Source of the DNA: an uncultured bacterium
GTDB lineage: Bacteria > Methylomirabilota > Methylomirabilia > Rokubacteriales > DASRDR01
Reading direction: 5' to 3'
DNA length: 64,000 nucleotides
Assembly: GCA_964416315.1 (NCBI GenBank)
Contig: CAYQDR010000011.1
Span: 244 to 64,243 of the forward strand
The notes beneath the pieces were generated by a model that did no database searches, was not told the DNA's origin, and worked only from the letters and a program-made list of their open reading frames with translations. The position numbers were made by a program, and so were the translations under genes. Shown piece after piece: positions 2,761 through 49,059 of the stretch (position 1 is the stretch's first letter; every line of letters begins with the position of its first letter).

Positions 2761-3155
2761 GTCACGCACGCACGCCGGCCCTCTTGCACTCCTTGCGCCA
2801 GGTCCCGTGGAACCGCAGGATGCGCTGGCCCTGGCGGTGGAAGACCCAAGAATGATCAACCCGCGCCAGCGCTCTAGGGTCTCAGTGGCTGGCCGCCTTC
2901 TGAGTCTTGAGGACCGCCAAGAGGCCGGGAGAAACGTAAGCGGCCCGCCCCCCGGATCCAAGCGGATACACCCCGTCTCCAGGTAGACCTGCCGCCACTA
3001 AAGCCTGAGGATTTCCCGCAGGCGCCAAGCCCCAGCTCGTGGCACGGCCCCTCCTGGCTCCGACGGACACCAGCCCTAGGGCCTGCTCTTGTAGGCGCCC
3101 ACAACATCTGCTATGCTTAACCAGTTCGAGGCCCGGGGTAGGGCGGAGTGAAGCC

Positions 3156-4508
3156 ATGTGTTCGGCGCGGGGCGTTCTTCCGCCGGGGGCGGTTGTGAGT
3201 CGGAGCATTCCGCAGAGCGAGACGAAGATCCTCTTTGCCCGGTCGGGCGGCATCTGCGCTTTCCCCTACTGCGGGCGTTCGCTTGTGGAGCCTGGCTCGC
3301 TCACCGACGGCGCCGTTATGGTTGGTGAAGTCGCCCACATCGTCGCTGAGAGCCGACAGGGACCACGCGGACGCGCGCCACTCGTCGAGGCCGCCCGCAA
3401 CATGCACACTAACCTGATCCTGTTCTGCCCCGAGCACCACACGATCGTCGACGCTCGGCCTGAGACATACAGTGTGGCAGTCTTGAGGCAGATGAAGGTC
3501 GATCACGAATCGCACGTCCAGCGGGCGGTCGGCGTCCCAGCGCACCGGCCTCTCTCGTCTCCCCGAACTGAGGCGATCTACAGCACCGGGCTGCCTGTCA
3601 CGCATCTCCCCGATGCGGTCTTCTTCGCGGGGTGCACGCTTGAGGACGGCACGGAAGACCAGGTAAAGAAGCTCATCAAGTATCCCAGCTCGTACGATGA
3701 ATTGGTTCCCTTCCTTCTTCGTGAGAGGAAGATCTTTGCCTTCCACGATCTGCGTCAGGCCCAGAACCCGTTTTCTCCGGTCACCGACAGCGCAAGCGCT
3801 GGGATGCTTCGCTCGACAGATCTGTGGCGCGATGCGGAAGGTAAGCGACGCTACGTCACGCTTCTCAATCGCTCCCTCTACAAGTACAGCGCCCGAGTGG
3901 CCGTCAGATACGACCCCGCGCACTATCGCTTCTACTTCCCACCCAAGACGCTGGGCAGTTCGCGCACGGTGAGGTACCGGTCGCTCGCGGGACGGTGGAG
4001 CAGGCGGAAGGTCGTCTGGCCGGCCACGAAGAAGTCGACGGGCGAAGCGCGCAACTACTGGTGGCATTTGGCAGCGGCATTGAAGTTCCACCAAATGGCG
4101 GACATGCAGTGGTGTTTAAGCATCCGACCTGAGCGGCATCTCACGACCGACGGCGAGATGCCGCTTCCGTCGGAGATGATCGGCCGCCGAGTGACCCGCC
4201 TCAAGGCGCGGATGTATAACGATCTCTACCTCGCCGAGGTCAACTTCTGGCGGGAGTACCTGTCAAAGGGCGCGCCGCGCGTCACCTTGAACTTCGGCGA
4301 TCAGTCGGGGGTCATCGAGGCCGCTTTCATGCGCATTGTTATGAAGTGGCCTGGGATTCCTGGCGATCAGAAAACAGTGAGTGGACCGACTTCCGACGAT
4401 CTCTTCAGCCTTGTTGATCTCGCGGAGACCGTCGAGGGCGAAGAGATCGAGTGGACCGATGGAGACGGGGACGAACTCGAAGAGGATCCTGACATCGATG
4501 GCAACTAG
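3156..4508 (+). CDS. HNH endonuclease domain protein with ~330-aa C-terminal extension; candidate nuclease-APAZ partner of the downstream short Argonaute
   Basis: N-terminal HNH motif ICAFPYCGRS...VGEVAHIVAE...NLILFCPEHHTIVD. GGAG sits 6 nt before ATG 3156. The stop TAG 4506-4508 overlaps the pAgo start 4498 (ATGGCAACTAG), implying translational coupling. APAZ identity of the C-terminal domain is inferred from context, not recognised by motif. Confidence 0.7.
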   Translation: MCSARGVLPPGAVVSRSIPQSETKILFARSGGICAFPYCGRSLVEPGSLTDGAVMVGEVAHIVAESRQGPRGRAPLVEAARNMHTNLILFCPEHHTIVDARPETYSVAVLRQMKVDHESHVQRAVGVPAHRPLSSPRTEAIYSTGLPVTHLPDAVFFAGCTLEDGTEDQVKKLIKYPSSYDELVPFLLRERKIFAFHDLRQAQNPFSPVTDSASAGMLRSTDLWRDAEGKRRYVTLLNRSLYKYSARVAVRYDPAHYRFYFPPKTLGSSRTVRYRSLAGRWSRRKVVWPATKKSTGEARNYWWHLAAALKFHQMADMQWCLSIRPERHLTTDGEMPLPSEMIGRRVTRLKARMYNDLYLAEVNFWREYLSKGAPRVTLNFGDQSGVIEAAFMRIVMKWPGIPGDQKTVSGPTSDDLFSLVDLAETVEGEEIEWTDGDGDELEEDPDIDGN

Positions 4509-5927
4509 ACTCGCCGCGCTCAAGCTTGCCTGTCCCTACATCGCAACCGAGTGGTTTGATGAACCGGAACTGCTATTCGCCGGTGGCTCGAGACACGTCG
4601 ACCCCAAAGTCGGGGTACCGCTCTACGGGCCGCGTTCGTTCGGGGAGCCGCGGCATAAGCGGGAACTCCATGTCGGCTTTATCGGAACCAGCGAAGCCGT
4701 TGAACATGCACGAATGTTCTATGAAAGGTGCGCAGCCGGCGTAGCCGGGACTGGCGAGGACGCGCCCTTCCCGGGCTGCAAGGAGGACCGAGGATACCGC
4801 TGCGAACTGCGGACCGATGACCGGATCGTTGAACTCATCACGAGGCAGGAGAGCAACGAACTCCTCGGAATCAAGAACAGCCGGAAGCGCTTCGAGACGA
4901 TTCTCATGCTTCTGCACGCAAAGATGCGTCTCCTTACCCAACGGGACCATCCGCTCGACTACGTGTCTGTCGTGCTCGCCGAGGACGTCTATCGAAAGTG
5001 CCGTGTCGCAAACTACACGGAAAAAGGCATGGGCCTGGTCCACCGCGATCTCAGACTGGCGTTTAAGGCGCTCGCGATGCAGTTCCATCCGCCGACCCAA
5101 ATGCTCCTCGAAACAACGACCGGACTTACGCCGCCGACTCGCCGGAAGCTTGATCACCAGTCGCGCATCGCGTGGAATCTTTTACGGCGCTCTACTTCAA
5201 GGTTGACGGCCTGCCGTGGAGCCCCGTTGGCCTTGCGCCCGGCAGTTGCTTCATCGGCATCAGCTTTTTCCGCCCGCTCGGAGAAAGGTCGACGCTACGG
5301 ACGAGCGTGGTCCAGGCATTCGATGAAGACGGGGAGGGCTTGGTGTTGAGGGGCCACAAGTTTCAGTGGGACGAGTCGCAAGGTAGGTCGCCCCATCTCT
5401 CAGAAGAGATGGCCGGGATGCTTATCGAGATGGTTTTGGAGCGTTACAGGCAGGAGCGCAGGCACCTTCCGCAGCGAGTCATCGTTCAGAAGACCTCACG
5501 CTTTGAGGTGGCAGAGCGAGCGGGCTTTGAAGAGGCCCTTAAGAAGGTGAGCCGGTACGACCTTCTCTCGCTGTGTCCCGAGAGTTCGATCCGCCTTGTG
5601 CGAGCCGGACGTTATCCGCCGCTTCGGGGAGCGGCCTTCCGGATCGGGGACGCCTGGTACCTTTACACGAGCGGATATCTGACGAGCCTCGGCGGGTATC
5701 CGCATGGTCACGTCCCGTCCCCGCTTCAGATTACCGACCATGTTGGTGATACGCCCGGGACGCAGCTGCTACGCGAGATTCTTGTGCTCACCAAGATGAA
5801 TCTGAATTCCGCGAATATGTCGGGACTGATGCCGATCACGCTGCGCTTCTCGCGACTCGTCGGCGATATTCTCCGGGAGGTACCGGAGAGCCAGACACCG
5901 CAACCCCAGTATAAGTACTACATGTAG
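4498..5927 (+). CDS. short prokaryotic Argonaute (MID-PIWI only, about 476 aa), catalytically inactive PIWI; reading frame interrupted by a 1-nt indel at T-run 5180-5183
   Basis: MID-like K...HPPTQ...K segment followed by a bridging IAWNL motif. Canonical PIWI entry motif TALYFKVDGLPW. First catalytic GxDV is replaced by CFIGISF and the RDG motif by QKTSRF (DEDX lost). C-terminal PIWI segment RIGDAWYLYTSGY...PITLRFSRLVGDIL. ORFs 4381-5349 (frame 1) and 5172-5927 (frame 3) join to a continuous Ago sequence if one T is added at 5180-5183. Confidence 0.75.
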
Positions 5928-6495: not shown

Positions 6496-7410
6496 GTGCG
6501 GCGCTCGGTCCTCGGCGAGCTGTGGCGCGTGGCCTGGCGCAACCCCACGGCCCTGGTCGGGGGGATCCTGGTCGCCGTCGTCGTCCTGATGGCCGTCGGC
6601 GCGCCGCTCGTCGCGCCCGCCGACCCCCTGAAGACGGACTTCCGGCGCCTGAGCCGGCCCCCGGACGCGCAGAGCCTCTTCGGGACCGACCAGGTGGGCC
6701 GGGACTCCTTGAGCCGGGTGATCTACGGGGCGCGCGCGTCCATGGTGGTGGCGTTCTCGGCGGTGCTCCTGGGGACGACCGTGGGCGCCCTCTGGGGCCT
6801 GGCGTGCGGCTACCTCGGGGGCCGGTTCGACCTCGTCAGCCAGCGGGTCATGGAGGTGCTCCAGTCCTTTCCGGACCTGATCCTGGCGATGGCCATCTCC
6901 ATGGCCATCGGCACCGGGATGCCGGCGGTGATCGTGGCGATCGCCGTCACCCGGATCCCCTTCGGCGGCCGGGTGATCCGCTCGGTGGCGCTGAGCGTGA
7001 AGGAGCTGGCCTACGTGGAGGCGGGGCGGTCGTCCGGGGCGTCGGCCGTGCGGATCATGACGTACCACGTCCTGCCGCAGTGCCTCGCGCCCTATCTGGT
7101 CCTCGCCACCACGCACCTCGGGGTCGCCATCGTCATCGAGGCGGCGCTGGGGTTTCTCGGGGTGGGGATTCCGCCGCCCACGCCGACCTGGGGCAACATG
7201 CTGGCGGATTCGCTGACGTCCCTGGTGCCGCACTGGTGGCTCGTGTTCTTTCCGGGGCTGGCCATCACGGTCACGGTACTGGCGTTCAACCTACTCGGGG
7301 ACGGCATTCGGGACACGCTCGACCCGCGCCTGTCGCCGGCCTTCCTGCGCCTCGTTACCACCGGCCGGTCCGGCGGCGCTGGGACCCTCGGGCTTTCGAG
7401 CAAGCAGTAG
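6496..7410 (+). CDS. ABC transporter permease, DppC/OppC family
   Basis: GELWRVAWRNPTALVGG...FGTDQVGRD...LGDGIRDTLDPRL are typical OppC N-terminal and EAA-loop region features. GTG start at 6496 is in frame. Confidence 0.75.
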   Translation: MRRSVLGELWRVAWRNPTALVGGILVAVVVLMAVGAPLVAPADPLKTDFRRLSRPPDAQSLFGTDQVGRDSLSRVIYGARASMVVAFSAVLLGTTVGALWGLACGYLGGRFDLVSQRVMEVLQSFPDLILAMAISMAIGTGMPAVIVAIAVTRIPFGGRVIRSVALSVKELAYVEAGRSSGASAVRIMTYHVLPQCLAPYLVLATTHLGVAIVIEAALGFLGVGIPPPTPTWGNMLADSLTSLVPHWWLVFFPGLAITVTVLAFNLLGDGIRDTLDPRLSPAFLRLVTTGRSGGAGTLGLSSKQ

Positions 7411-14146: not shown

Positions 14147-15188
14147 CCCCCTCACCATCCCCTCTCCCCCGGCGGGAGAGAAGGAGAGCCGGCCGATCCT
14201 GGAGGTCCGCGACCTCTGCACCTACTTCTTCACCGACGAGGGGACGGTCAAGGCCGTGGACGGCGCGAGCTTCGACGTCCATCCGCGGCGGACGCTCGGG
14301 ATCGTGGGGGAGTCGGGCTGCGGGAAGAGCGTGACGGCGCGCTCCATCCTCCGGATCGTCGAGCGTCCGGGGCGGATCGTCTCCGGCACGGTCCTCCTCC
14401 GGCGGAACGGCCCCGGGGCGGAGGGGGTGGACCTCACCCGGCTCGACCCGGCCGGGTCCGAGATGCGGCAGATCCGCGGCGGCGACATTTCGCTCGTCTT
14501 TCAGGAGCCGATGACGTCCTTCAGCCCCGTCCACACGATCGGCAACCAGATGGTCGAGACGATCCGGCTCCACCAGGGGCTCTCGAAGAACGACGCGCGC
14601 GACAAGGCGGTCGAGACGCTGCGCCTGGTCGGGATCCCCCGGCCCGAGCGCCGCGTGGGCGAGTACGCCTTCCAGCTCAGCGGCGGCCTGCGCCAGCGCG
14701 CCATGATCGCCCTCGCGCTGTCGTGCGGTCCCCGCGTCCTCATCGCCGACGAGCCGACGACGGCCCTCGACGTCACGACGCAGGCCCAGATTCTCGACCT
14801 CCTGCGCCGCCTCCAGGACGAGGAGGGGATGGGGATCATCCTCATCACCCACAACCTCGGCGTGATCGCCGAGATGTGCGACACGGTCGTCGTCATGTAC
14901 CTCGGGCGCGTGGTGGAGGAGGGACCGGTGGACGCGATCTTTCACGCCCCGAAGCACCCCTACACCCGGGCGCTGCTGCGCTCGATCCCCTCGATCCACG
15001 CCCCCGTCCGTACCCGGCTGCCCGTGATCACGGGCTCGATCCCGCACCCCTACAACCGGCCCGCGGGGTGCCCGTTCCACCCGCGCTGCCCCGACTTCAT
15101 GCCCGGCACCTGCGACCGCGCGGAGCCCGCCCTCGAGCCCGCGGGCGACGGGCAGGCCGTGAGCTGCTTCCTCTACCGCGCCCCATGA
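14121..15188 (+). CDS. ABC transporter ATP-binding protein, DppD/OppD family
   Basis: Walker A GESGCGKS, signature LSGGLRQR, C-terminal oligopeptide-ABC domain (CPFHPRCP). Start may be ATG 14136 instead. Confidence 0.85.
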
Positions 15189-16207
15189 GCCAGGCGAACG
15201 GCGCGCCCCTCCTGGACGTCCGGGGCCTCCGGAAGTTCTTCCCGATCCAGAAGGGGTTCCTCCGGCGGGTCGTCGGGCACGTGCGTGCCGTGGACGACGT
15301 GAGCTTCGCCGTCCGGAAGGGGGAGACGCTGTCGCTCGTCGGGGAGTCGGGCTGCGGCAAGACGACGACCGCCCGCTGCATCCTCCGGGCGCTCGCGCCC
15401 ACGGCGGGGGAGATCCGCTTCCGGGCCGGCGATGGCGCGGTGGTGGACGTCGCGCGCCTGTCGAAGCGCCAGCTCCGCCCGCTCCGGCGCCAGATGCAGA
15501 TGATCTTCCAGGACCCGTTCTCGTCCCTGAACCCGCGGCGGACCCTCCTCGACATCGTCGCCGAGCCGCTGGTGGCCAACGGGCTCGGGACCCGCCGGGA
15601 GCGGATCGACCGCGTCGCGGAGCTCCTGCCCCTGGTCGGCCTGCGTCCCGAGTACATGCGGCGCTACCCTCACGCCTTCAGCGGCGGCCAGCGCCAGCGG
15701 GTCGGCATCGCCCGGGCCCTCGCCCTGAACCCGAGTCTCGTGGTCGCCGACGAGCCCGTCTCGGCCCTCGACGTCTCGGTGCAGGCGCAGATCCTGAACC
15801 TGATGCTCGACCTCCAGGCGCAGCTCGGGCTCACGTACCTGTTCGTCGCGCACGACCTCTCGGTGGTCAAGCACGTGAGCGACCGGGTCGCCGTGATGTA
15901 CGTCGGCCGGATCGTCGAGGTCGCCGAGACGCAGGCGCTCTTCACGGCGCCGCTCCACCCGTACACGGAGGCGCTGCTCTCCGCGGTGCCGAAGCCCGAC
16001 CCCCGGCTGCGCGCCCGGCGGATCGTGCTCGAGGGCGAGGTCGCGGACGCGGCCCACCCACCGGCCGGCTGCTATTTCCACCCCCGCTGCCCCTACGCGG
16101 TCGAGCGCTGCCGCGTCGAGACGCCGGCGCTCGCGGAGGCCCGGCCGGGCCACCTCGTGAGCTGCCATCGGGCGGGGGAGCTCACGCTCCGGGGCGTCAG
16201 CGCGTAG
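15185..16207 (+). CDS. ABC transporter ATP-binding protein, DppF/OppF family
   Basis: Walker [10 protein letters not shown], signature [13 protein letters not shown] overlap with the upstream stop. Confidence 0.85.
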
Positions 16208-16330
16208 TGCGGGCCCAATTAACTTCGCCTGGCGTCGTCCTCGGTCGTCGGCGGACCTCAACGTATGCGGCATACGCCTCGGCCCGCCTCCTCCCTGCGT
16301 CCTAGCCATACTCGTTACTTGGCCCCGCAC
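16206..16330 (+). mobile_element. 125-bp element with ~10-bp terminal inverted repeats (GTGCGGGCCC...GGCCCCGCAC) and an internal perfect palindrome CGTATGC-G-GCATACG; copy A
   Basis: Starts at the TAG stop of dppF. About 97% identical to the reverse complement of 33688-33813. Confidence 0.6.
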
Positions 16331-16386
16331 CGTCCGCGACCACGCCTGACCGGGCCCGCGGTCGGGCTGCGCGCATCGGCCGGACC

Positions 16387-17619
16387 GTGAGCCCCATCGC
16401 CTCGCCGTTCGTCGCCCTCCAGCACCGGAACTTCCGCCTCCTCTGGGCGGGCCAGCTCTTCTCCATGTCCGGCTCGATGATGCAGACCGCGGCGATCCTC
16501 TGGCACGTCTCGCTCCTGGTCCCGCCGGAGCGCCGAGGCCTCGCCCTCGGCCTCGTCGGGCTCGTCCGCCTCGTCCCGATCGTCTCGCTCTCGCTCGTGA
16601 GCGGGGTCGTGGCGGACGCCGTCGACCGCCGCCGCTTGATGGTCGCCACGCAGTGCGGCATGGCGCTGGTCGCCGCGGTCCTCGCCGTCCTGACGTTCCG
16701 CGGGCTCGACGCCGTGTGGCCGATCTACGTCCTGGCGGCGTTGAGCTCGGCCGCCGCCTCGTTCGACGTGCCGGCGCGGCAGGCCTTCGTCCCGAACCTG
16801 GTCCCGCGCGAGCACCTCCCGAACGCCATCAGCCTGAACACGATCATGTTCCAGGCGGCCTCGGTCGTCGGTCCCTCGCTCGGCGGCGTGGTGATCGCGG
16901 TGCTCGGGGTCGGGTGGGTGTACGCGGTCAACGCGCTCTCGTTCCTCGTGGTGATCGGCTCGCTCCTCGCCATGCGCGGCGTTGTCTCGCGCGAGCGGCG
17001 GGAGGCGGGAGAGATCAGCCTCCGCGCGGCGGCGGACGGCCTGCGCTTCGCCTTCGCGTCGCCGCTGATCCGCTCGACGATGCTGCTCGACTTCCTGGCG
17101 ACGTTCTTCGCGTCGGCGACGGCGCTCCTGCCCATCTTCGCGCAGGACATCCTGGCCGTCGGGGCGCGCGGCTACGGCTGGCTCTATGCCGCGCCCTCGG
17201 TCGGCGCCGTCGTGGCGAGCCTGGCGATGGTGCGGGTCATGGGCGACATCGAGCACCGCGGGCGCGTGCTGCTGTGGGCCGTCGCGGGCTACGGGCTCGC
17301 CACGGTCCTCTTCGGCCTCTCGCGCGAGTTCTGGCTCACGTTCGTGTGCCTCGCCCTGACGGGCGCGACGGACACCGTCAGCATGGTGATCCGCAACGTG
17401 ATCCGCCAGCTCGAGACGCCGGATCACCTGCGCGGCCGCGTGGGGAGCGTCGGGATGCTCTTTTTCATGGGCGGGCCCCAGCTCGGGGAGCTCGAGGCCG
17501 GCCTGGTCGCCGACTGGCTCGGGGCGCCGGGGTCGGTGGTGACGGGGGGGCTCGGGAGCCTCGTGACGACGGCCTGGATCGCCGCGGCGACGCCGGCGCT
17601 GCGGCGGTACCGCCGGTGA
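16387..17619 (+). CDS. MFS transporter (enterobactin-exporter EntS-like family)
   Basis: HRNFRLLWAGQLFSMSGSMMQ N-terminus typical of this MFS subfamily. 12-TM hydrophobic profile. Confidence 0.8.
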   Translation: MSPIASPFVALQHRNFRLLWAGQLFSMSGSMMQTAAILWHVSLLVPPERRGLALGLVGLVRLVPIVSLSLVSGVVADAVDRRRLMVATQCGMALVAAVLAVLTFRGLDAVWPIYVLAALSSAAASFDVPARQAFVPNLVPREHLPNAISLNTIMFQAASVVGPSLGGVVIAVLGVGWVYAVNALSFLVVIGSLLAMRGVVSRERREAGEISLRAAADGLRFAFASPLIRSTMLLDFLATFFASATALLPIFAQDILAVGARGYGWLYAAPSVGAVVASLAMVRVMGDIEHRGRVLLWAVAGYGLATVLFGLSREFWLTFVCLALTGATDTVSMVIRNVIRQLETPDHLRGRVGSVGMLFFMGGPQLGELEAGLVADWLGAPGSVVTGGLGSLVTTAWIAAATPALRRYRR

Positions 17620-18206: not shown

Positions 18207-18917
18207 CTAGCCGAATCGGCGCTGGTACAGTTCGCTGATCCTTGTGAGCGCGGCTCCGTAGTCAAGTTCGACTCGTCGCGGATCGAGCCAATTGAACGGA
18301 TACGGCCGTTGGTTGGTCGCCCGAAACTGGAGGATGAGCAACTCGTCGTAGCGCCTCAGAAGCTGATCTTTGATTCGTTGAATTACTGTCTTCGGCTCCT
18401 GCTCTCGGAGCTCATGCCTAAAGGCACGTGACCCCTCGTACCCGACATAGTTCGCCTCGTGGTTCACGCCAATTATCGCGACATTGATGCATCGGCGGTT
18501 CAGGGACTTCATGCGCTGCGCGAATCCGTCAAGGTCGTTGATGACCCGATCGATTTGTTTGAGCTGAGACTTCGCTAGGATCTTCACCTCACAGCCAATC
18601 CTCGGTTCTGCTACAGGGCCTTCCGGAACCGAGAAACCCCGAGGAGTCTTGCGGGAACCTATTCCTGCTGGGGGCTTCCCAAGGACGCTGTCATTCCGTC
18701 TGATAGCCCTCGGAGTATGTATTCTGCCACCCCGATTTGCGAGGCCGCGGAGCGTCCGCACGTGCTGCGCATAGCCCGGGGAATCTGAGTGGTCGAACAG
18801 ATCTTCGAACAGTTCCCGCCCGATCTTGTTTCCCAGGCTCGAGTCGCGGTGCTTGTAGATCTTCCCCTTGAACGTCTGCCGGAAGCGTTCAAGGAGCCTG
18901 AATGTGGTGTTCGCCAT
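18207..18917 (-). CDS. hypothetical protein; candidate type II restriction endonuclease (possible PE-x12-EVK nuclease motif)
   Basis: Low-GC ORF immediately downstream of and co-oriented with an N4/N6 MTase gene. Function inferred from context only. Confidence 0.45.
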   Translation of the reverse strand: MANTTFRLLERFRQTFKGKIYKHRDSSLGNKIGRELFEDLFDHSDSPGYAQHVRTLRGLANRGGRIHTPRAIRRNDSVLGKPPAGIGSRKTPRGFSVPEGPVAEPRIGCEVKILAKSQLKQIDRVINDLDGFAQRMKSLNRRCINVAIIGVNHEANYVGYEGSRAFRHELREQEPKTVIQRIKDQLLRRYDELLILQFRATNQRPYPFNWLDPRRVELDYGAALTRISELYQRRFG

Positions 18918-18931
18918 CTGGTCGAGGCGAT

Positions 18932-19888
18932 CTATTCAGCGTGGATCCTTGCGGGTAGCTTCTCCTTGTGAACGAACTGCCGGAGACGCTGAACCGACGC
19001 AGCGTGGTAGGAGGGCTCGACCTCGATTCCGATGCTATTCCGACCAGCGCGCGCCGCTGCAAGGCTCGTCGTACCCGTGCCCGAGAAGGGGTCGAGAACC
19101 GTGTCGCCGGCGAAACTGAACATGCGGATCATACGCTCGCCGAGTTCCATCGAAAATGGTGCAGGATGTGCGCGTGTTGACGTGCCGGGTAGTCGCGAAA
19201 TCTGGTTGAACCAAGTTCGGTGTTGTTTCTCACCAATGAGGCTCAGAATCCGCATGGCGTCCGTCGGGCGTCTGTAGGCTCCGGGCTTCCGCTGCATGAG
19301 AATGAACTCAATATCATTCTTGATGATCGCATTGGGTTCGTAGGGCTTGCCAAGGAACGCCGTCCCATTCTCCACTTCGAAGGCGGCATTCGCGATCTTG
19401 TACCAGATGATTGGCGCGAGGTTATGAAACCCTAGCTCGGCGCAGTGAACCTGGATCGCGGCATGGAGTGGCACGACCATGTGGGCACCGTGCTTCCTCC
19501 GCGACAGGCAAACGTCGCCCACCACGACTACAAGTCGGCCGCCCTTGACGAGTACCCGGAAACACTCTGTCCAAACGCGGTCCAACTCCTTCAGGAAGAC
19601 GTGGAGATCGGTCAGGCATCCGAGCTGGGCTTCATTTTCGGGGTAGCGCTTCAACGTCCAGTAGGGCGGGGAAGTCACGATTAGATGCACCGATTCGTCC
19701 GACACGCGGCTTATGTTGCGAGCATCGCTGAGGTAGAGCCGGTGCTCTGTTGGAATCTCCTTGATTGCCTTAGCGATGGCGCGCAAAGCCGAACGATCCT
19801 TCGCGAGTCTGGGAATCGCGTTCTGGGGAAGTCGGCGGGACGCCAAGTGCGGTAGGTGCCGAGCAATGAGGTCTTCGAGCGCCCTCAA
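18932..19888 (-). CDS. DNA methyltransferase, N4-cytosine/N6-adenine (beta-class amino-MTase)
   Basis: Motif IV IVTSPPYW and motif I LDPFSGTGTT. The ORF runs to 20122 but has no ATG. TTG at 19888 is preceded by GAGG. Start uncertain. Confidence 0.8.
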   Translation of the reverse strand: MRALEDLIARHLPHLASRRLPQNAIPRLAKDRSALRAIAKAIKEIPTEHRLYLSDARNISRVSDESVHLIVTSPPYWTLKRYPENEAQLGCLTDLHVFLKELDRVWTECFRVLVKGGRLVVVVGDVCLSRRKHGAHMVVPLHAAIQVHCAELGFHNLAPIIWYKIANAAFEVENGTAFLGKPYEPNAIIKNDIEFILMQRKPGAYRRPTDAMRILSLIGEKQHRTWFNQISRLPGTSTRAHPAPFSMELGERMIRMFSFAGDTVLDPFSGTGTTSLAAARAGRNSIGIEVEPSYHAASVQRLRQFVHKEKLPARIHAE

Positions 19889-20286
19889 GCCAGCCTCACT
19901 CTGGTCACCCTTATACTCAATATCTGGGGTGCTGTCAAGCCTCAGGCTACGACATCTCGTTGATCTCCAGCCATCTGGGCACCGACAGGGGGCCCCGCTT
20001 TCGCTCAGGGCCGGGCGGCTCTGCTCGGTCGGTTCGAACCGAAACGCCTGCTGGCGGCCTGGGTCAGGCTGAGGGTGGGGAACCCGCCTTTTGTGTAGTC
20101 GGCACCGTGGTCCGGGGCACATGGTCTGGGGTCCTGGTCACTCCCACGAGCAACATCTGTGCCGATCTGCAGGGTAAGGTCGAAGCGGCGGAAATTGACG
20201 GCGCCCGCAGTTAGGATGTCATCATCCCGACCCCGGCGACGGGAGTGGACAGGGAGGCCAAAGGGGATACAGCGGCTGGTCGGCCG

Positions 20287-32866: not shown

Positions 32867-33625
32867 TCAGGCCTCCGCGGCGTCGGCCCAGGTGCCGCCG
32901 TAGATGCGCTCGAAGGCCTCCTCGGTGAGCTCGCTGGCCGGCCCGTCGTAGACGATCGCGCCGCCCTTCAGCCCGATGATGCGCTTGGCGAAGGCCCGCG
33001 CCAGCGGGACGTCGTGCATGTTGATGAGCGCCGGGATCGCGTCCTCCGCCGCGAGCTCCACGATCAGCTTCATGATGGCCTCGGAGGTCCGGGGGTCGAG
33101 GCTCGAGGTCGGCTCGTCCACCAGCAGGATCTTCGGCCGCTGGACGAGCGCCCGGGCGATCCCCACGCGCTGCCGCTGGCCGCCCGACAGCGCGTCGGCC
33201 CGCTTGTTCTCGAACCCCTCGAGCCCCACGCGCCGGAGCGTGACGAACGCTCCCTCGAGGTCCTCCGGCGGGAACCGCCGCCGCCACGCCCGCCACGCCG
33301 TGACGTAGCCGAGACGTCCGGAGAGCACGTTCTCCATCACGGTCAGCCGCTCGACGAGGTTGAACTCCTGGAAGATCATCCCCATGGCGCGGCGGGCCAG
33401 GCGCAGCTCCGGGCCGGAGAGCGTCGTCAGCTCCTGACCGTCCAGGCGGACCGAGCCGCCGTCCGGCTCCACGAGCCGGTTGATGCAGCGGAGGAGCGTG
33501 GACTTGCCCGCGCCCGAGGGACCGATGATGAAGACGGCGTCGTGCCCTTCGACGGTGAAGGAGACGCCCTGGAGCGCCCGGTCCCCCGTGGGGTACGTCT
33601 TGCGGAGCCCGGTGACCGCGAGCAC
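32867..33625 (-). CDS. phnC: phosphonate ABC transporter ATP-binding protein PhnC
   Basis: Walker [10 protein letters not shown], signature LSGGQRQRV. Confidence 0.85.
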
Positions 33626-33687
33626 GCGCCGGGGCCGGGCTAGTGCGGTTCCGAGTTACTTGGGCGAAACCGCCGAGGGGTGCCGAA

Positions 33688-33813
33688 GGTGCGGGGCCAA
33701 GTAACGAGCATAGTTAGGACGCAGGGAGGAGGCGGGCCGAGGCGTATGCCGCATACGTTGAGGTCCGCCGACGACCGAGGACGACGCTAGGCGAAGTTAA
33801 TTGGACCCGCACT
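33688..33813 (-). mobile_element. 126-bp TIR element, copy B (reverse complement ~97% identical to 16206-16330)
   Basis: Direct alignment with 3 mismatches and 1 indel. Begins at the TAG stop of phnD. Same orientation relative to transcription as copy A. Confidence 0.6.
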
Positions 33814-34839
33814 CTAGTCGGCGCCCGGCTTCTGGAGCCTCTTGTACTCCGGCGAGTCCTTGGTGAAGACGGCGCCGTTGGCCTCGAGGATGCCGACGAC
33901 CGGGTCCCAGTCCTTCTGGTAGTTCACCGGCATGAACCCCGTCCGGCCCTGGGCCGCGAACTCCTTGAGGCTGGTCCCCTCCATCCGGAAGGTCATGAAC
34001 GCTTCCTTGATCTTCTCGACGAGCCTGGGATCGAGGGTGTGGGCGTAGGCGAAGCCGGCGGTCGGGAACACCGGCGACGTGTAGAGGACCTTGAAGTCGC
34101 TCGCCTTGATGAGGCCGCGCTTGACCATCCGGTCCACCACCGTGTCCGCGACGACCCCGGCGTCGTAGTCGCCGTTGACGACACCGAGCGCGCTGTTGTC
34201 GTGCTTGCCGGAGAAGACGATCTGGTAGTCCTTTCCGGGGACGACGCCCATCCGGGAGAAGAAATAGACGGGCGCCTGGTGCCCGGAGTTGGACGTCTGC
34301 GACACGTGGGCGACGCGCTTGCCCTTCAGGTCGCCGACGGCGTTGATCTTGTCGTTCTTCGCGTGAGCGATGAGGATCATGTGGTAGCCGGACGGGCCGC
34401 CCTTCGCGTCGCGCATGATCGCGAAGGGGACCGCGCCCGCCAGGTTCACCGCGTAGACGAGGCTCCCGGTGGAGTACCCCGAGAGATGGAGCCGACCCGA
34501 GCGCATGGCCTCGATCTGCGCCGCGTAGTTCTGGAGGCCGAAGTACTTGGTCTTCTTGCCGGTCACTTTCTCGACGTGCCTGAGGAAATCGCTCCACGCG
34601 CCCTCGTACACGACCGGGTCCTCGACCGGCGCGTACGTGAAGATCAAGGGGTCCGGGCTCACGAGCTTCGACGGGTCCTTGGGCGGATCCGCGATCAGAT
34701 CGCGGTCCTCGTCGCAGAAGAGGGCGTCGAGCTTGCCCCGGTGCGCGCAGGGCTCGGCGGCGAAGGCCGCGGCGGCCGTGGCGGCCACGAGCGCGATCAG
34801 GGCGAGGGGCCAGAGGCGGGGGGAGATCGGGGTCCTCAT
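33814..34839 (-). CDS. phnD: phosphonate ABC transporter substrate-binding protein PhnD
   Basis: Signal peptide. Phosphonate-binding family length and motifs (SGYSTGSLVYAVN...SQTSNSGH). Confidence 0.85.
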   Translation of the reverse strand: MRTPISPRLWPLALIALVAATAAAAFAAEPCAHRGKLDALFCDEDRDLIADPPKDPSKLVSPDPLIFTYAPVEDPVVYEGAWSDFLRHVEKVTGKKTKYFGLQNYAAQIEAMRSGRLHLSGYSTGSLVYAVNLAGAVPFAIMRDAKGGPSGYHMILIAHAKNDKINAVGDLKGKRVAHVSQTSNSGHQAPVYFFSRMGVVPGKDYQIVFSGKHDNSALGVVNGDYDAGVVADTVVDRMVKRGLIKASDFKVLYTSPVFPTAGFAYAHTLDPRLVEKIKEAFMTFRMEGTSLKEFAAQGRTGFMPVNYQKDWDPVVGILEANGAVFTKDSPEYKRLQKPGAD

Positions 34840-42018: not shown

Positions 42019-42233
42019 TCAGCGGCGGGGTACATCGCCGGCTCGGAGTGGCCCGGGAGGCGCCCAGGCTCCCAGACGTGCTTCCGCGCGACGGCCTCGT
42101 TCAGCTCGGCGCCCCAGCTGGGGCGCGTCGGGATCAGGAGGTGGCCTCCCGGACGACGGGAGGCGCGTCCACGAGCTCGTCCTTCCAGGGGACGTCGTCC
42201 ACGTCGATCTCCATGATCCGGACAGTGCCCGAA
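42019..42233 (-). pseudogene. duplicated 3' fragment (~215 bp, ~90% identical) of the enolase-superfamily gene at 47845-49059
   Basis: DNA alignment 42019-42233 versus 47855-48056. Encodes ...RIMEIDVDDVPWKDELVDAPPVV...LLIPTRPSWGAELNEAVARKHVWEPGRLPGHSEPAMY with an internal frameshift and loss of the stop. Confidence 0.55.
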
Positions 42234-47844: not shown

Positions 47845-49059
47845 TTACCTCCCGTACATCGCCGGGTCGGAGTAGCCCGGGAGCCGCCCCGGCTCCCAGA
47901 CGTGCTTCCGCGCGACGGCCTCGTTCAGCTCGGCACCCCAGCCGGGGCGCGTCGGGATCAGGAGGTGGCCGTCCCGGACGACCGGGGGCGCGTCCACCAG
48001 TTCGTCCTTCCACGGCACGTCGTCCACGTCGATCTCCATGATCCGGACGTTCGGCACGGACGCGCAGAGGTGCGCCGAGTGGAGCGTCGAGAGGTGGCTG
48101 TAGTAGTTGTGGGGGGCAATGTTCAGCTCGTAGGTCTCGGCCAGCTCCGCGATCTTCCGCGACTGGGCGAAGCCGTTCCAGGGCACGTCCACCATCACGA
48201 CGTCCATCGCGCGCGCCTCGAAGAAGGGCCGGTAGCCGCGGAGGCCGTAGAGGTTCTCGCCAGAGCAGATGGGGATCGAGGTCGCGTCCTTGACCTCGCG
48301 GAGCGCCCGCTCGTCGTAGAGGTCCAGCTCGAGCCACATGAGGTCGAAGGGCTCCAGCGCCCGTGCGATGCGGCGCGCCGCCTCCGGCTTGAAGTTGAAG
48401 TTGAGGTCGAGCGCGATCCCGACGTCCGGTCCCACCGCCCGCCGGAGGGTCCCGATCTGGGTCTCGATGTGGCGGAGGAGCTCGGGCGTCAGTGCCTGGT
48501 CGGTCGTGCCGGGGCCGCCGCCGAAGCCGGGGAAGTAGACGGTGGCTGGTTCCCCCGGGACGACGATGTTGGTCTTCAGCGCCGTGTAGCCCCGCCGGAC
48601 GACCTCCTCGCCGAGCCGGAAGAGATCATCCATCGTCCGGATCGGTGGCGCGCCGATGAGCGCGGAGTCGCGGGCGCGGGAGGTGCCGCAGTGAGACCAG
48701 TAGACCCGCTGGCGCTCGCGCAAGGGGCCGCCGACCAGCTCGTACACGGGGACGGTGAGGGCCTTCGCCTTGAGGTCCCAGAGCGCCAGCTCGATCCCGG
48801 CGATCGCCTTGGCGGCGATCCCGCCCGGGCTCTGCCGCGCCATCCGGTACAGGTCCCAGTAGAGCATCTCGACGGGGCGCGGGTCGCGGCCGAGGAGGAT
48901 CGGCTCGAAGTCGCGCACCGCCCCGACGATGCCGTAGGGATTCCGCCCGTCCGAGCACTCGCCGTAGCCGGTGAGCCCCTCGTCCGTGCGCACGGCGACG
49001 AACTGCCAGGGACGCCAGCCCGCGTCCACCACGAACGTGTCGACCTTGGTGATCTTCAT
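47845..49059 (-). CDS. mandelate racemase/muconate lactonizing enzyme family protein (enolase superfamily; galactonate-dehydratase-like)
   Basis: MKITKVDTFVV...KxK and DxE metal ligand pattern. 404 aa. Confidence 0.85.
   Translation of the reverse strand: MKITKVDTFVVDAGWRPWQFVAVRTDEGLTGYGECSDGRNPYGIVGAVRDFEPILLGRDPRPVEMLYWDLYRMARQSPGGIAAKAIAGIELALWDLKAKALTVPVYELVGGPLRERQRVYWSHCGTSRARDSALIGAPPIRTMDDLFRLGEEVVRRGYTALKTNIVVPGEPATVYFPGFGGGPGTTDQALTPELLRHIETQIGTLRRAVGPDVGIALDLNFNFKPEAARRIARALEPFDLMWLELDLYDERALREVKDATSIPICSGENLYGLRGYRPFFEARAMDVVMVDVPWNGFAQSRKIAELAETYELNIAPHNYYSHLSTLHSAHLCASVPNVRIMEIDVDDVPWKDELVDAPPVVRDGHLLIPTRPGWGAELNEAVARKHVWEPGRLPGYSDPAMYGR

Follow-up and report, generated by a model that had tools for sequence, protein, structure and literature searches.

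The stretch of DNA analysed here, hereafter the window, comprises 64,000 nt of contig CAYQDR010000011.1 from an uncultured Rokubacteriales bacterium, in which a hairpin repeat occurs twice. Copy A follows a dppF-like oligopeptide ABC transporter gene, and copy B lies between phnD and phnC, upstream of a phnE-like permease gene (phnDCE operon). The DppF protein of the window has an identical counterpart on contigs from NCBI, JGI and ENA, and close relatives of it carry the label Candidatus Rokubacteria or NC10. The genome has a G+C content of 72%. The genes and the parts of the two copies are located as follows.

15173–16207, plus strand: dppF-like oligopeptide ABC ATPase gene (Pfam ABC_tran and oligo_HPY)
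16207–16330, plus strand: hairpin of copy A, 124 nt, GTGC...GCAC, with no tail and no recognisable 3' direct repeat
16207–16223, plus strand: left terminal inverted repeat of copy A, GTGCGGGCCCAATTAAC
16234–16244, plus strand: unpaired conserved motif GTCGTCCTCGG of the 5' arm (66 copies), which holds the first CGTCCT direct repeat
16259–16278, plus strand: apical hairpin core CAACGTATGCGGCATACGCC, the 20-mer of the genome scan
16287–16295, plus strand: CCTCCTCCC, just before the 3'-arm motif
16295–16305, plus strand: unpaired conserved motif CTGCGTCCTAG of the 3' arm, which holds the second CGTCCT
16314–16330, plus strand: right terminal inverted repeat of copy A, GTTACTTGGCCCCGCAC
16387–17619, plus strand: MFS_3 transporter gene (Pfam), with a GTG start 56 nt 3' of copy A
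32867–33625, minus strand: phnC, ABC ATPase gene (Pfam), with a GTG start 14 nt 3' of the TAG that borders copy B on the right
33640–33642, minus strand: TAG on the right flank of copy B, which repeats the stop codon in direct orientation
33643–33659, minus strand: last 17 nt of the copy B tail, GTAACTCGGAACCGCAC, a second inverted copy of the left terminus (13/17)
33643–33688, minus strand: tail of copy B, 46 nt, part of the inserted unit and missing from empty phnD-phnC junctions
33689–33812, minus strand: hairpin of copy B, GTGCGGGTCC...GGCCCCGCAC
33814–34839, minus strand: phnD, phosphonate-binding protein gene (Pfam)

Copy A (16206–16331, plus strand) and the reverse complement of copy B (33688–33813) align over 126 nt with 121 identical positions (96%), five substitutions and no indel, and the likeness drops off sharply at both edges. 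An earlier note on the window, made from its letters alone, had described this two-copy repeat, and the repeat is real. Its count of three substitutions and one indel has to be corrected; what was read as an indel is an additional AG that separates TAG from GTGC on the 5' side of copy B, beyond the repeat itself. The two copies lie on opposite strands, 17 kb apart, each sense to its own upstream gene, and each is a long imperfect palindrome abutting a TAG stop codon. In the dppF-like gene this TAG is at 16205–16207, and copy A begins with its G; the TAG of phnD (33816–33814) forms the left flank of copy B, with a single base between it and the hairpin. The left arm of the window copies reads GTGCGGG(C/T)CCAATTAAC and the right arm GTTACTTGGCCCCGCAC. 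These arms are 17 nt long, not ~10 bp as first noticed, and are complementary at 15 of 17 positions in both copies, and the central perfect palindrome CGTATGC-G-GCATACG is present as described. The termini of the element are GTGCGGGNCCAATYAAC, and the hairpin runs from GTGC to GCAC. Each terminal pattern (≤3 mismatches) occurs exactly twice in the window and no match of any kind was found in 100 shuffles, and a profile search of the window returned copies A and B only. Copy B with its flanks was also found in independent JGI, ENA and Logan assemblies; therefore, the repeat is not an assembly artefact. Copies are 124–170 nt long, contain no consistent open reading frame (ORF) and keep no frame relative to the flanking genes.

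Using the PhnD protein of the window, 37 related phnD loci (44–88% amino-acid identity) were fetched from metagenomes, 28 of which have a readable phnD-phnC junction. The element is missing from all of them (37 of 37). From the phnD stop to the phnC start there are 8–25 nt in the readable loci, with ~130 nt in one (L105; fetched loci are given by L numbers), and 188 nt in the window. For example, an empty junction reads GCCGAG TAA CCCCGGGCCC GTGCTC, and the junction in the window reads GCCGAC TAG, then the insert (A, GTGCGGG...hairpin...CCCCGCAC and the 46-nt tail ending in ...GGAACCGCAC), then TAG CCCGGCCCCGGCGC GTGCTC. From this comparison, the inserted unit of copy B is about 170 nt (33643–33812/13) and not 126 nt, with TAG on both sides. 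The extent of ~125 bp proposed in the earlier note therefore holds for the hairpin, but copy B runs 46 nt further 3', to 33643. Compared with the related phnD loci that lack the 170-nt insert, the apparent target-site duplication of copy B can be read as TA, TAG or CTAG. Homologous tails in the same subfamily (L030, L044, L066, L085 and L037) end in ..GGAACGGCAC-TAG; each of these copies begins ..C-TAG-TGCGGG and four of the five end ..GGAACGGCA(C)-TAG, the exception being L085, whose 3' end has CCAG. In all, six window-type copies with tails have TAG...TAG flanks, most of them with the full repeat CTAG...CTAG. At the other site, two dppF orthologues (L124 and L125; 88% and 86% identity) have TAG at the same codon position and no element.

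These comparisons show that the window elements are lineage-specific insertions exactly at the native TAG stop codons of dppF and phnD. They also show that the full unit of the window subfamily consists of the 124-nt hairpin and a tail of ~46 nt with a second inverted terminus at its end, that TA(G), usually as part of CTAG, stands on either side of this unit, and that copy A is tail-less. Copy A is either a short form using the internal right terminus or a copy that has lost its tail. A different element of ~183 nt in L083 (4298–4480) has the same termini (TAGTGCGGGTCCAATCAAC ... GTTAATTGGTCGGAACGGCGCTAG) and TA flanks, with an unrelated interior and no hairpin core. It appears to be a second type of miniature inverted-repeat transposable element (MITE) with the same ends, as is expected if a transposase recognises these ends. 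Its flanks are TTAG on the left and CTAG on the right, and therefore TA or TAG is favoured over CTAG as the duplication. Syntenic empty sites were also sought among the genome loci, where synteny is mostly lost; L004/L042 are ambiguous, and L019/L033 and L015/L081 gave no information.

To estimate the size of the family, the exact central 20-mer CAACGTATGCGGCATACGCC was scanned against the species-representative genomes of GTDB. At least 83 matching stretches were found in about eight species-level metagenome-assembled genomes (MAGs) of Methylomirabilota/Rokubacteria, so that the copy-number check proposed earlier reaches far beyond the two window copies. Among the matches listed, 37 loci belong to SMAG_U4595, 24 to binchicken_co95_48 and 9 to MAG159, and the remaining ones come from five further Rokubacteria/Methylomirabilota MAGs. 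A profile built from the copies gave 106 hits in the fetched loci, 75 of them full length, and many short contigs terminate within a copy. L069 (DASYRI010000262.1, binned as Gemmatimonadales) is 99.8% identical over 2.65 kb to the L027 contig of SMAG_U4595 (Methylomirabilota) from the same study, and the Gemmatimonadales contig is therefore taken as a binning duplicate. Its place in Gemmatimonadales is probably a binning error, and the apparent presence of the family outside Methylomirabilota would then not be real among the matches listed. No relative of the element was found in plasmid and phage collections by blastn; in IMG/VR, three pattern scans gave zero or chance-level hits and there was no profile match. 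A literature search found no description of the element family or of the repeat content of Rokubacteria/Methylomirabilota. The family is apparently a new, undescribed and large one in uncultured Rokubacteria, of a kind that is already known, the miniature transposon.

The structure was studied on 66 distinct copies of 129 nt with RNAalifold and pair counts. The consensus fold is a single long hairpin of 41 pairs, which bears out the idea that the terminal repeats close one long stem, and compensatory double changes occur in 24 of the 41 pairs, so that the covariation across copies which the earlier note had thought worth checking is present. Paired cells account for 96.8%, compared with 80.8% in column shuffles and 30–38% with slid partners. 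There are 353 double-change cells and 37 single-side changes, so that CG-to-GC or GC-to-AU swaps predominate and wobble intermediates are few. Between the stems, the unpaired motifs GTCGTCCTCGG (5' arm) and CTGCGTCCTAGG (3' arm) are near-invariant, and together they form a CGTCCT direct repeat facing itself across an internal loop. The GTCGTCCTCGG motif (16234–16244) lies outside the 20-mer used to fetch the loci. The apical hairpin does not vary in this sample because the loci were fetched with that 20-mer, an ascertainment effect.

The two strands fold differently. The strand antisense to the upstream gene folds better in 66 of 66 copies with RNA parameters (mean −84.6 vs −70.5 kcal/mol for the sense strand) and in 65 of 66 with DNA parameters (mean −43.7 vs −37.8). 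In the commonest type, the bottom strand contains two tandem G.A oppositions and G.U pairs, which become pyrimidine-pyrimidine and C.A oppositions on the top strand, and the asymmetry arises from this; other subfamilies have Watson-Crick pairs at the same positions. In the orthologous pair L014/L060, the flanks are 92% identical and 13 of 129 element positions differ. Of the five stem changes, four disrupt a pair and not one is compensatory, and the element decays at about the rate of its flanks. As the one clean orthologous pair, it gives weak evidence that the stem structure is kept among propagating lineages and not in place.

To figure out the position of copies relative to genes, we used gene calls of at least 60 codons with a G+C content of at least 0.8 at third codon positions, and a stop codon was counted when it ended −6 to +5 nt from the 5' edge of the hairpin. 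About two thirds of the full copies (48 of 71) begin at the stop of a sense-strand gene, and a convergent gene end is found at the 3' edge of only 4 of 70. The start of the window copies at the TAG stops of dppF and phnD, which had been pointed out before, is thus a family-wide adjacency and no coincidence of two copies. The stop codons at the 5' edge are TGA in 32 cases and TAG in 15. Between co-directional genes, 35 copies are sense and 5 antisense; convergent genes flank six copies, and no copy has clearly divergent neighbours. With respect to the gene that provides the TAG, copies of the CTAG-flanked subfamilies point either way (roughly 10 to 4–6), as expected for a palindromic target, and the opposite orientation of the window copies, each after its own gene, argues against an orientation set by the direction of replication. 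The spacing from stop to core falls in all three phases (24:15:8), and two of the three sense frames are open by composition. A mini-ORF joining the flanking genes exists in some copies of one class (for example L068, 58 codons, GTGA to GTGA). As a general feature, a translated mini-ORF like that of MIRUs was rejected, since the phase to the upstream stop is not kept.

The flanking repeats differ between subfamilies. Two subfamilies are bounded by CTAG...CTAG, including seven copies of the one not found in the window, and another is bounded by (A)TGAG(C/A)...(G)TGAGC. In a further subfamily the flanking pentamers of a copy vary together by site, being TGAGG/TGAGG in L048 and TGAGC/TGAGC in L068. 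The flanks of L059 are CTGAGC/CTGAGC, and single cases are CTGA/CTGA (L026, L042) and CTAG/CTAG (L036, L025). L026 (CTGA..CTGA) and L036 (CTAG..CTAG) occupy the same orthologous stop codon in two species with different stems, tails and flanking repeats, and are therefore independent insertions. The outermost 6–10 nt differ between subfamilies, and the conservation is internal. Across the family the repeats range from 2–5 nt to 61 nt. A universal short target duplication was rejected, as the downstream recurrence of the stop-codon 5-mer (see below) is not significant and convincing boundaries exist only at the subfamily level.

Tails carry a small covarying hairpin 8–12 nt before the terminal motif. 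In the 39-nt tail class (L012, L019, L029, L043, L068, L071 and L074), this hairpin is followed by (G)AGGGTAG, 4–5 nt and a final G, which forms with the flanking TG the GTG that opens a long ORF, even with an ATGAG 5' junction. Copies with this tail interrupt an overlapping RTGA stop/start junction and re-create both the stop and the start. In about a dozen copies, longer stretches of the upstream flank are duplicated. In L086, L084, L043, L040 and L048/L072 a partial second element follows, and the longer duplications are explained by repeated insertion into a duplicated target. The copy in L045 (131–259) precedes the gene for ribosomal protein S10 and itself follows a 29-nt duplicate of the first codons of that gene, and L004 has a 61-nt duplicate at ahcY; in both, the gene start and not the stop codon is duplicated.

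Tandem partial copies also occur in the family. Partial 5'-arm hits were considered as ends of a larger element and rejected, as they represent internally deleted, nested or tandem-remnant copies. A separate mini-hairpin of ~56 nt (..GGCGCGCCCCGGACGGCGGGGCCCCAGCCCCGCGACGTCCGGNGGCGCGC..) is nested at several positions within copies of the main element (L053 2078–2378, with three in one copy; L072 ~7100–7300; L059 2080–2250; L037 802–1046; L030 49–106), and each insertion starts with T(T)TCGGGT or TTTGGGA. Another nested hairpin of ~55 nt, GCATCACGGCCGGGACGCGCTCGGCCTGCGGCCGCGCGGCCGTCCCGGCCTCTGG, splits the conserved 5'-arm motif GTCCTCGG in L017 (~1709–1850), L018 (~4600–4750), L073 (5779–5960) and L084 (~7255–7400).

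The multiple copies, the empty orthologous sites, the short direct repeats at complete units and the nested insertions lend good support to the MITE-like insertion that the earlier note had listed among its candidates. We consider it likely that both repeats are non-autonomous, non-coding mobile elements of the MITE/REPIN kind, belonging to a large hairpin family of Candidatus Rokubacteria/Methylomirabilota. Its mobility would depend in trans on a transposase gene at another place in the genome. For the window subfamily, a TA-targeting cut-and-paste DDE enzyme of the IS630/Tc1-mariner type would be the best fit, because of the termini, the TA/CTAG flanks and the second MITE, which is unrelated but shares these termini. 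For IS630, a target-site duplication of 2 bp within CTAG is listed (PMC2577343, Table 1). The window-type copies B, L030, L044, L066 and L037 and the element of L083 have TA(G) on both sides, but copy A and the TGAG/CTGA subfamilies do not. Intragenic insertions would be purged and, because CTAG and other T-R-R motifs are rare outside stop codons at 72% G+C, surviving copies may accumulate at stop codons. The sense orientation may be favoured by selection, the mRNA then carrying the weaker hairpin, and in several subfamilies the tail would give the next gene a ribosome-binding site and a start codon. The complementarity of the stem would be kept because mobility needs the hairpin or inverted repeat, and not for use of the RNA by the host.

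However, several observations weigh against a transposon of this type. Copy A has no 3' TA or TAG repeat, and duplications of 18–61 nt of a gene end or start (L004, L005, L045, L049 and L050) fit no target-site duplication of fixed length. The 5-mer at the stop codon recurs downstream in 13 of 47 copies against 8.0 expected, which is not significant. In the main subfamilies the outermost nucleotides vary and the 5' end is not matched by an inverted copy at the tail end, features that are not typical of DDE transposons. Both the strand asymmetry in 66 of 66 copies and the conservation of unpaired motifs could instead reflect a structure-specific mechanism that acts on a single strand. Neither in the window nor in ~0.8 Mb of related loci was an autonomous partner or a transposase with matching ends found, and we know of no transposase matching an element of this family. 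The ORFs of the low-G+C islands of the window gave Pfam matches to restriction-modification genes, an amidase and parts of a TRAP transporter, and to no transposase, and megablast among the loci returned no multi-copy segments.

The same element might therefore be driven by another engine, as a REPIN/IS200/IS605-like single-stranded substrate of an HUH tyrosine transposase (RAYT or TnpA), an explanation that we hold as a tentative possibility. The enzyme might read the folded bottom strand with its conserved mismatches and insert 3' of CTAG, CTGA or TGAG in a fixed orientation, and the right-hand repeat might be the cleavage site of the element itself, not a target duplication. The bottom strand is indeed the better fold (66 of 66 with RNA and 65 of 66 with DNA parameters) and has the tandem G.A pairs that are Watson-Crick in other subfamilies, the internal loops are conserved while the stems covary, like REPIN spacers (PMC3116915), the outermost nucleotides are variable, and the tail hairpin stands 8–12 nt before the terminal motif. 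A REPIN/IS200-like mechanism would better account for the bottom-strand bias, the conserved mismatches and the variable outermost bases, and an asymmetric motif with a fixed insertion polarity would give the 35:5 bias without selection. However, the two flanking motifs of a copy vary together by site within a subfamily (L048, L068, L059), as expected of true duplications, CTAG-type copies are found in both orientations, and the window copies are opposite, each following its own gene, with no common replication direction. In the sampled loci no Y1 transposase was seen; tblastn with IS200 TnpA and Escherichia coli RAYT gave no match, a weak test with approximate query sequences. Rather doubtful is a further view, in which the family would be no ordinary transposon with terminal inverted repeats, and a structure-specific, single-strand-handled hairpin would home to stop or stop/start junctions (CTAG, CTGA, RTGAG) of operons and rebuild the split junction. 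The upstream stop would be kept, a small hairpin and a Shine-Dalgarno sequence would be brought in and the last base would complete the downstream GTG start, sometimes with junction duplications of 18–61 nt.

That the repeat is in the first place a structured 3' untranslated region RNA or a shared regulatory module, as the earlier note also considered, is not supported. A host-useful intercistronic RNA of this sort, acting on mRNA stability, the phnD:phnC ratio or the uncoupling of translation and spread for its usefulness, is unlikely in our judgement, and a host RNA role for the element, though possible, has no support here. It would agree with the strict sense polarity and placement at stop codons, with the strong covariation and conserved loops, with the 39-nt tail, whose Shine-Dalgarno-like GAGGG/GGAGGG and last G (plus TG, giving GTG) serve the next gene, and with the position of copy B between a binding-protein gene and its ATPase gene, for which the malE-malF REP element is the classic example. 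But the transcribed sense strand is always the weaker fold (66 of 66), 353 double-change cells stand against 37 single-change cells with few wobble intermediates, all 37 related phn loci and both dppF relatives lack the element, L014/L060 decay without compensation, and some copies bear up to three nested mini-hairpin insertions. The Rfam search suggested earlier gave 0 hits at the gathering threshold in the whole window, and a permissive scan of copy A returned only noise (E ≥2.8). Searches of both copies for promoters and terminators were likewise negative. An integron-type attC site marking gene cassettes is extremely improbable. Its length range includes 126 nt, the bottom strand folds better, the copies follow the 3' ends of ORFs in the same orientation and AATTAAC...GTTACTT vaguely resembles R''/R' boxes, but these boxes (RYYYAAC / GTTRRRY) match at only 6/7 and 5/7 positions, are set 10 nt into the stem and are lost through covariation in other subfamilies, and the copies are single and dispersed in housekeeping operons without arrays. 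For practical purposes it was rejected, as the empty phnD-phnC sites show that the element alone was inserted, with no cassette. Hardly any weight is given to an intrinsic, possibly U-tract-less terminator duplicated by chance, or to an assembly artefact. A very stable G+C-rich hairpin directly after two genes would suit a terminator, but there is no T-run or terminator-like site in or after either copy, and copy B is inside the phnDCE operon. Chance or artefact was rejected on the identity of 96% over 126 nt, the dozens of other copies and the three independent assemblies.

Compared with known systems, the preferred MITE/REPIN-like element shares with IS630/Tc1-mariner MITEs (e.g. the Correia elements of Neisseria) the length of 100–200 nt, the non-coding nature, a whole-unit hairpin from terminal inverted repeats, many dispersed copies, gene-adjacent co-transcribed positions and, in the window subfamily, TA flanks in CTAG. 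It differs in that copy A is without the 3' TA, most other subfamilies have CTGA, TGAG(C/G) or much longer repeats, and the family shows a strong sense polarity, conserved internal loops, covarying stems and no conserved terminal bases elsewhere. REPINs are hairpins of ~110–130 nt made of two inverted halves with compensatory changes, present in hundreds of extragenic copies, in tandem clusters and with vertical persistence (PMC3116915). As in the REPIN/RAYT system, the element consists of two inverted halves as a hairpin with compensatory changes and strand-specific structure. However, REPINs conserve the terminal REP 16-mers, while here the ends vary and the inner loops are conserved; there is no conserved terminal GTAG-type REP motif, short flanking direct repeats are present, and no RAYT was found in the weak test above. 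We know of no report that REPINs follow the orientation of the upstream gene or lie against its stop codon in such a way. MIRUs, reportedly set out by Supply and colleagues in 1997, are 46–101-bp tandem direct repeats, intercistronic and gene-oriented, with junctions to the upstream stop and downstream start. The element resembles them in its intercistronic, gene-oriented position in operons and in some copies that duplicate the overlapping RTGA stop/start junction, but it is a long hairpin and does not consistently keep a continuous mini-ORF bridging both genes. ERIC elements are ~126 nt long, and ERIC and BIME-REP occur in both orientations. Like the element, they are imperfect palindromes in transcribed intergenic regions, REPs often being near stop codons and within operons; unlike it, they are found in enterobacteria, hosts of a different phylum, and in this comparison by description no sequence relationship was seen.

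Rokubacteria/Methylomirabilota are abundant, uncultured bacteria of soil and groundwater with large genomes, in which this family breaks assemblies, contigs ending in copies, and sits inside operons. It could serve as a marker for strain typing, and it may bear on gene expression, with 170 nt of very stable hairpin between the tightly coupled phnD and phnC. Target choice and selection would act together here, as an A/T-containing target motif makes stop codons landing pads at 72% G+C, and the surviving orientation leaves the weaker hairpin in the mRNA, plus a ribosome-binding site and start codon in some subfamilies. The family is uncommon in combining insertion at stop codons with a strictly sense polarity, a hairpin that is strand-asymmetric and has conserved loops, and junction-repairing tails. 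If the element were a substrate of a single-strand transposase, the REPIN/RAYT idea would extend to a new phylum with a new targeting rule. If it were a specialist of operon junctions, this would be a way of life so far undescribed for mobile elements, and the element might in part have been domesticated in Rokubacteria as an intercistronic spacer for expression.

Some other features were observed in the window and the fetched loci. A low-G+C island (~60%) at 257–2441 contains an SfiI-like restriction enzyme gene (257–1156) beside an N6/N4 DNA methylase gene (1158–2441), and 42-nt inverted arms at 2506–2547 and 3068–3109, 76% complementary and 520 nt apart, lie in the low-G+C region by the methylase gene. 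A second low-G+C island (~60%) at 18207–20122 has a methylase gene (18932–20122) beside an ORF without Pfam match (18207–18917). A direct repeat of ~195 nt with 92–95% identity occurs at 42030–42223 and 47854–48048, 5.8 kb apart, and flanks a segment of lower G+C with the amidase and TRAP-transporter (DctP/DctQ) genes; it could represent paralogous gene ends or the borders of an acquired segment. In L125, a G+C-rich tandem array of ~60-nt units (..CCGGGAGCCGGGGGGGCGCCGACTCGGTCCCCCGCTGCTC..), unrelated to the element, is found 3' of the dppF orthologue (3527–4060).

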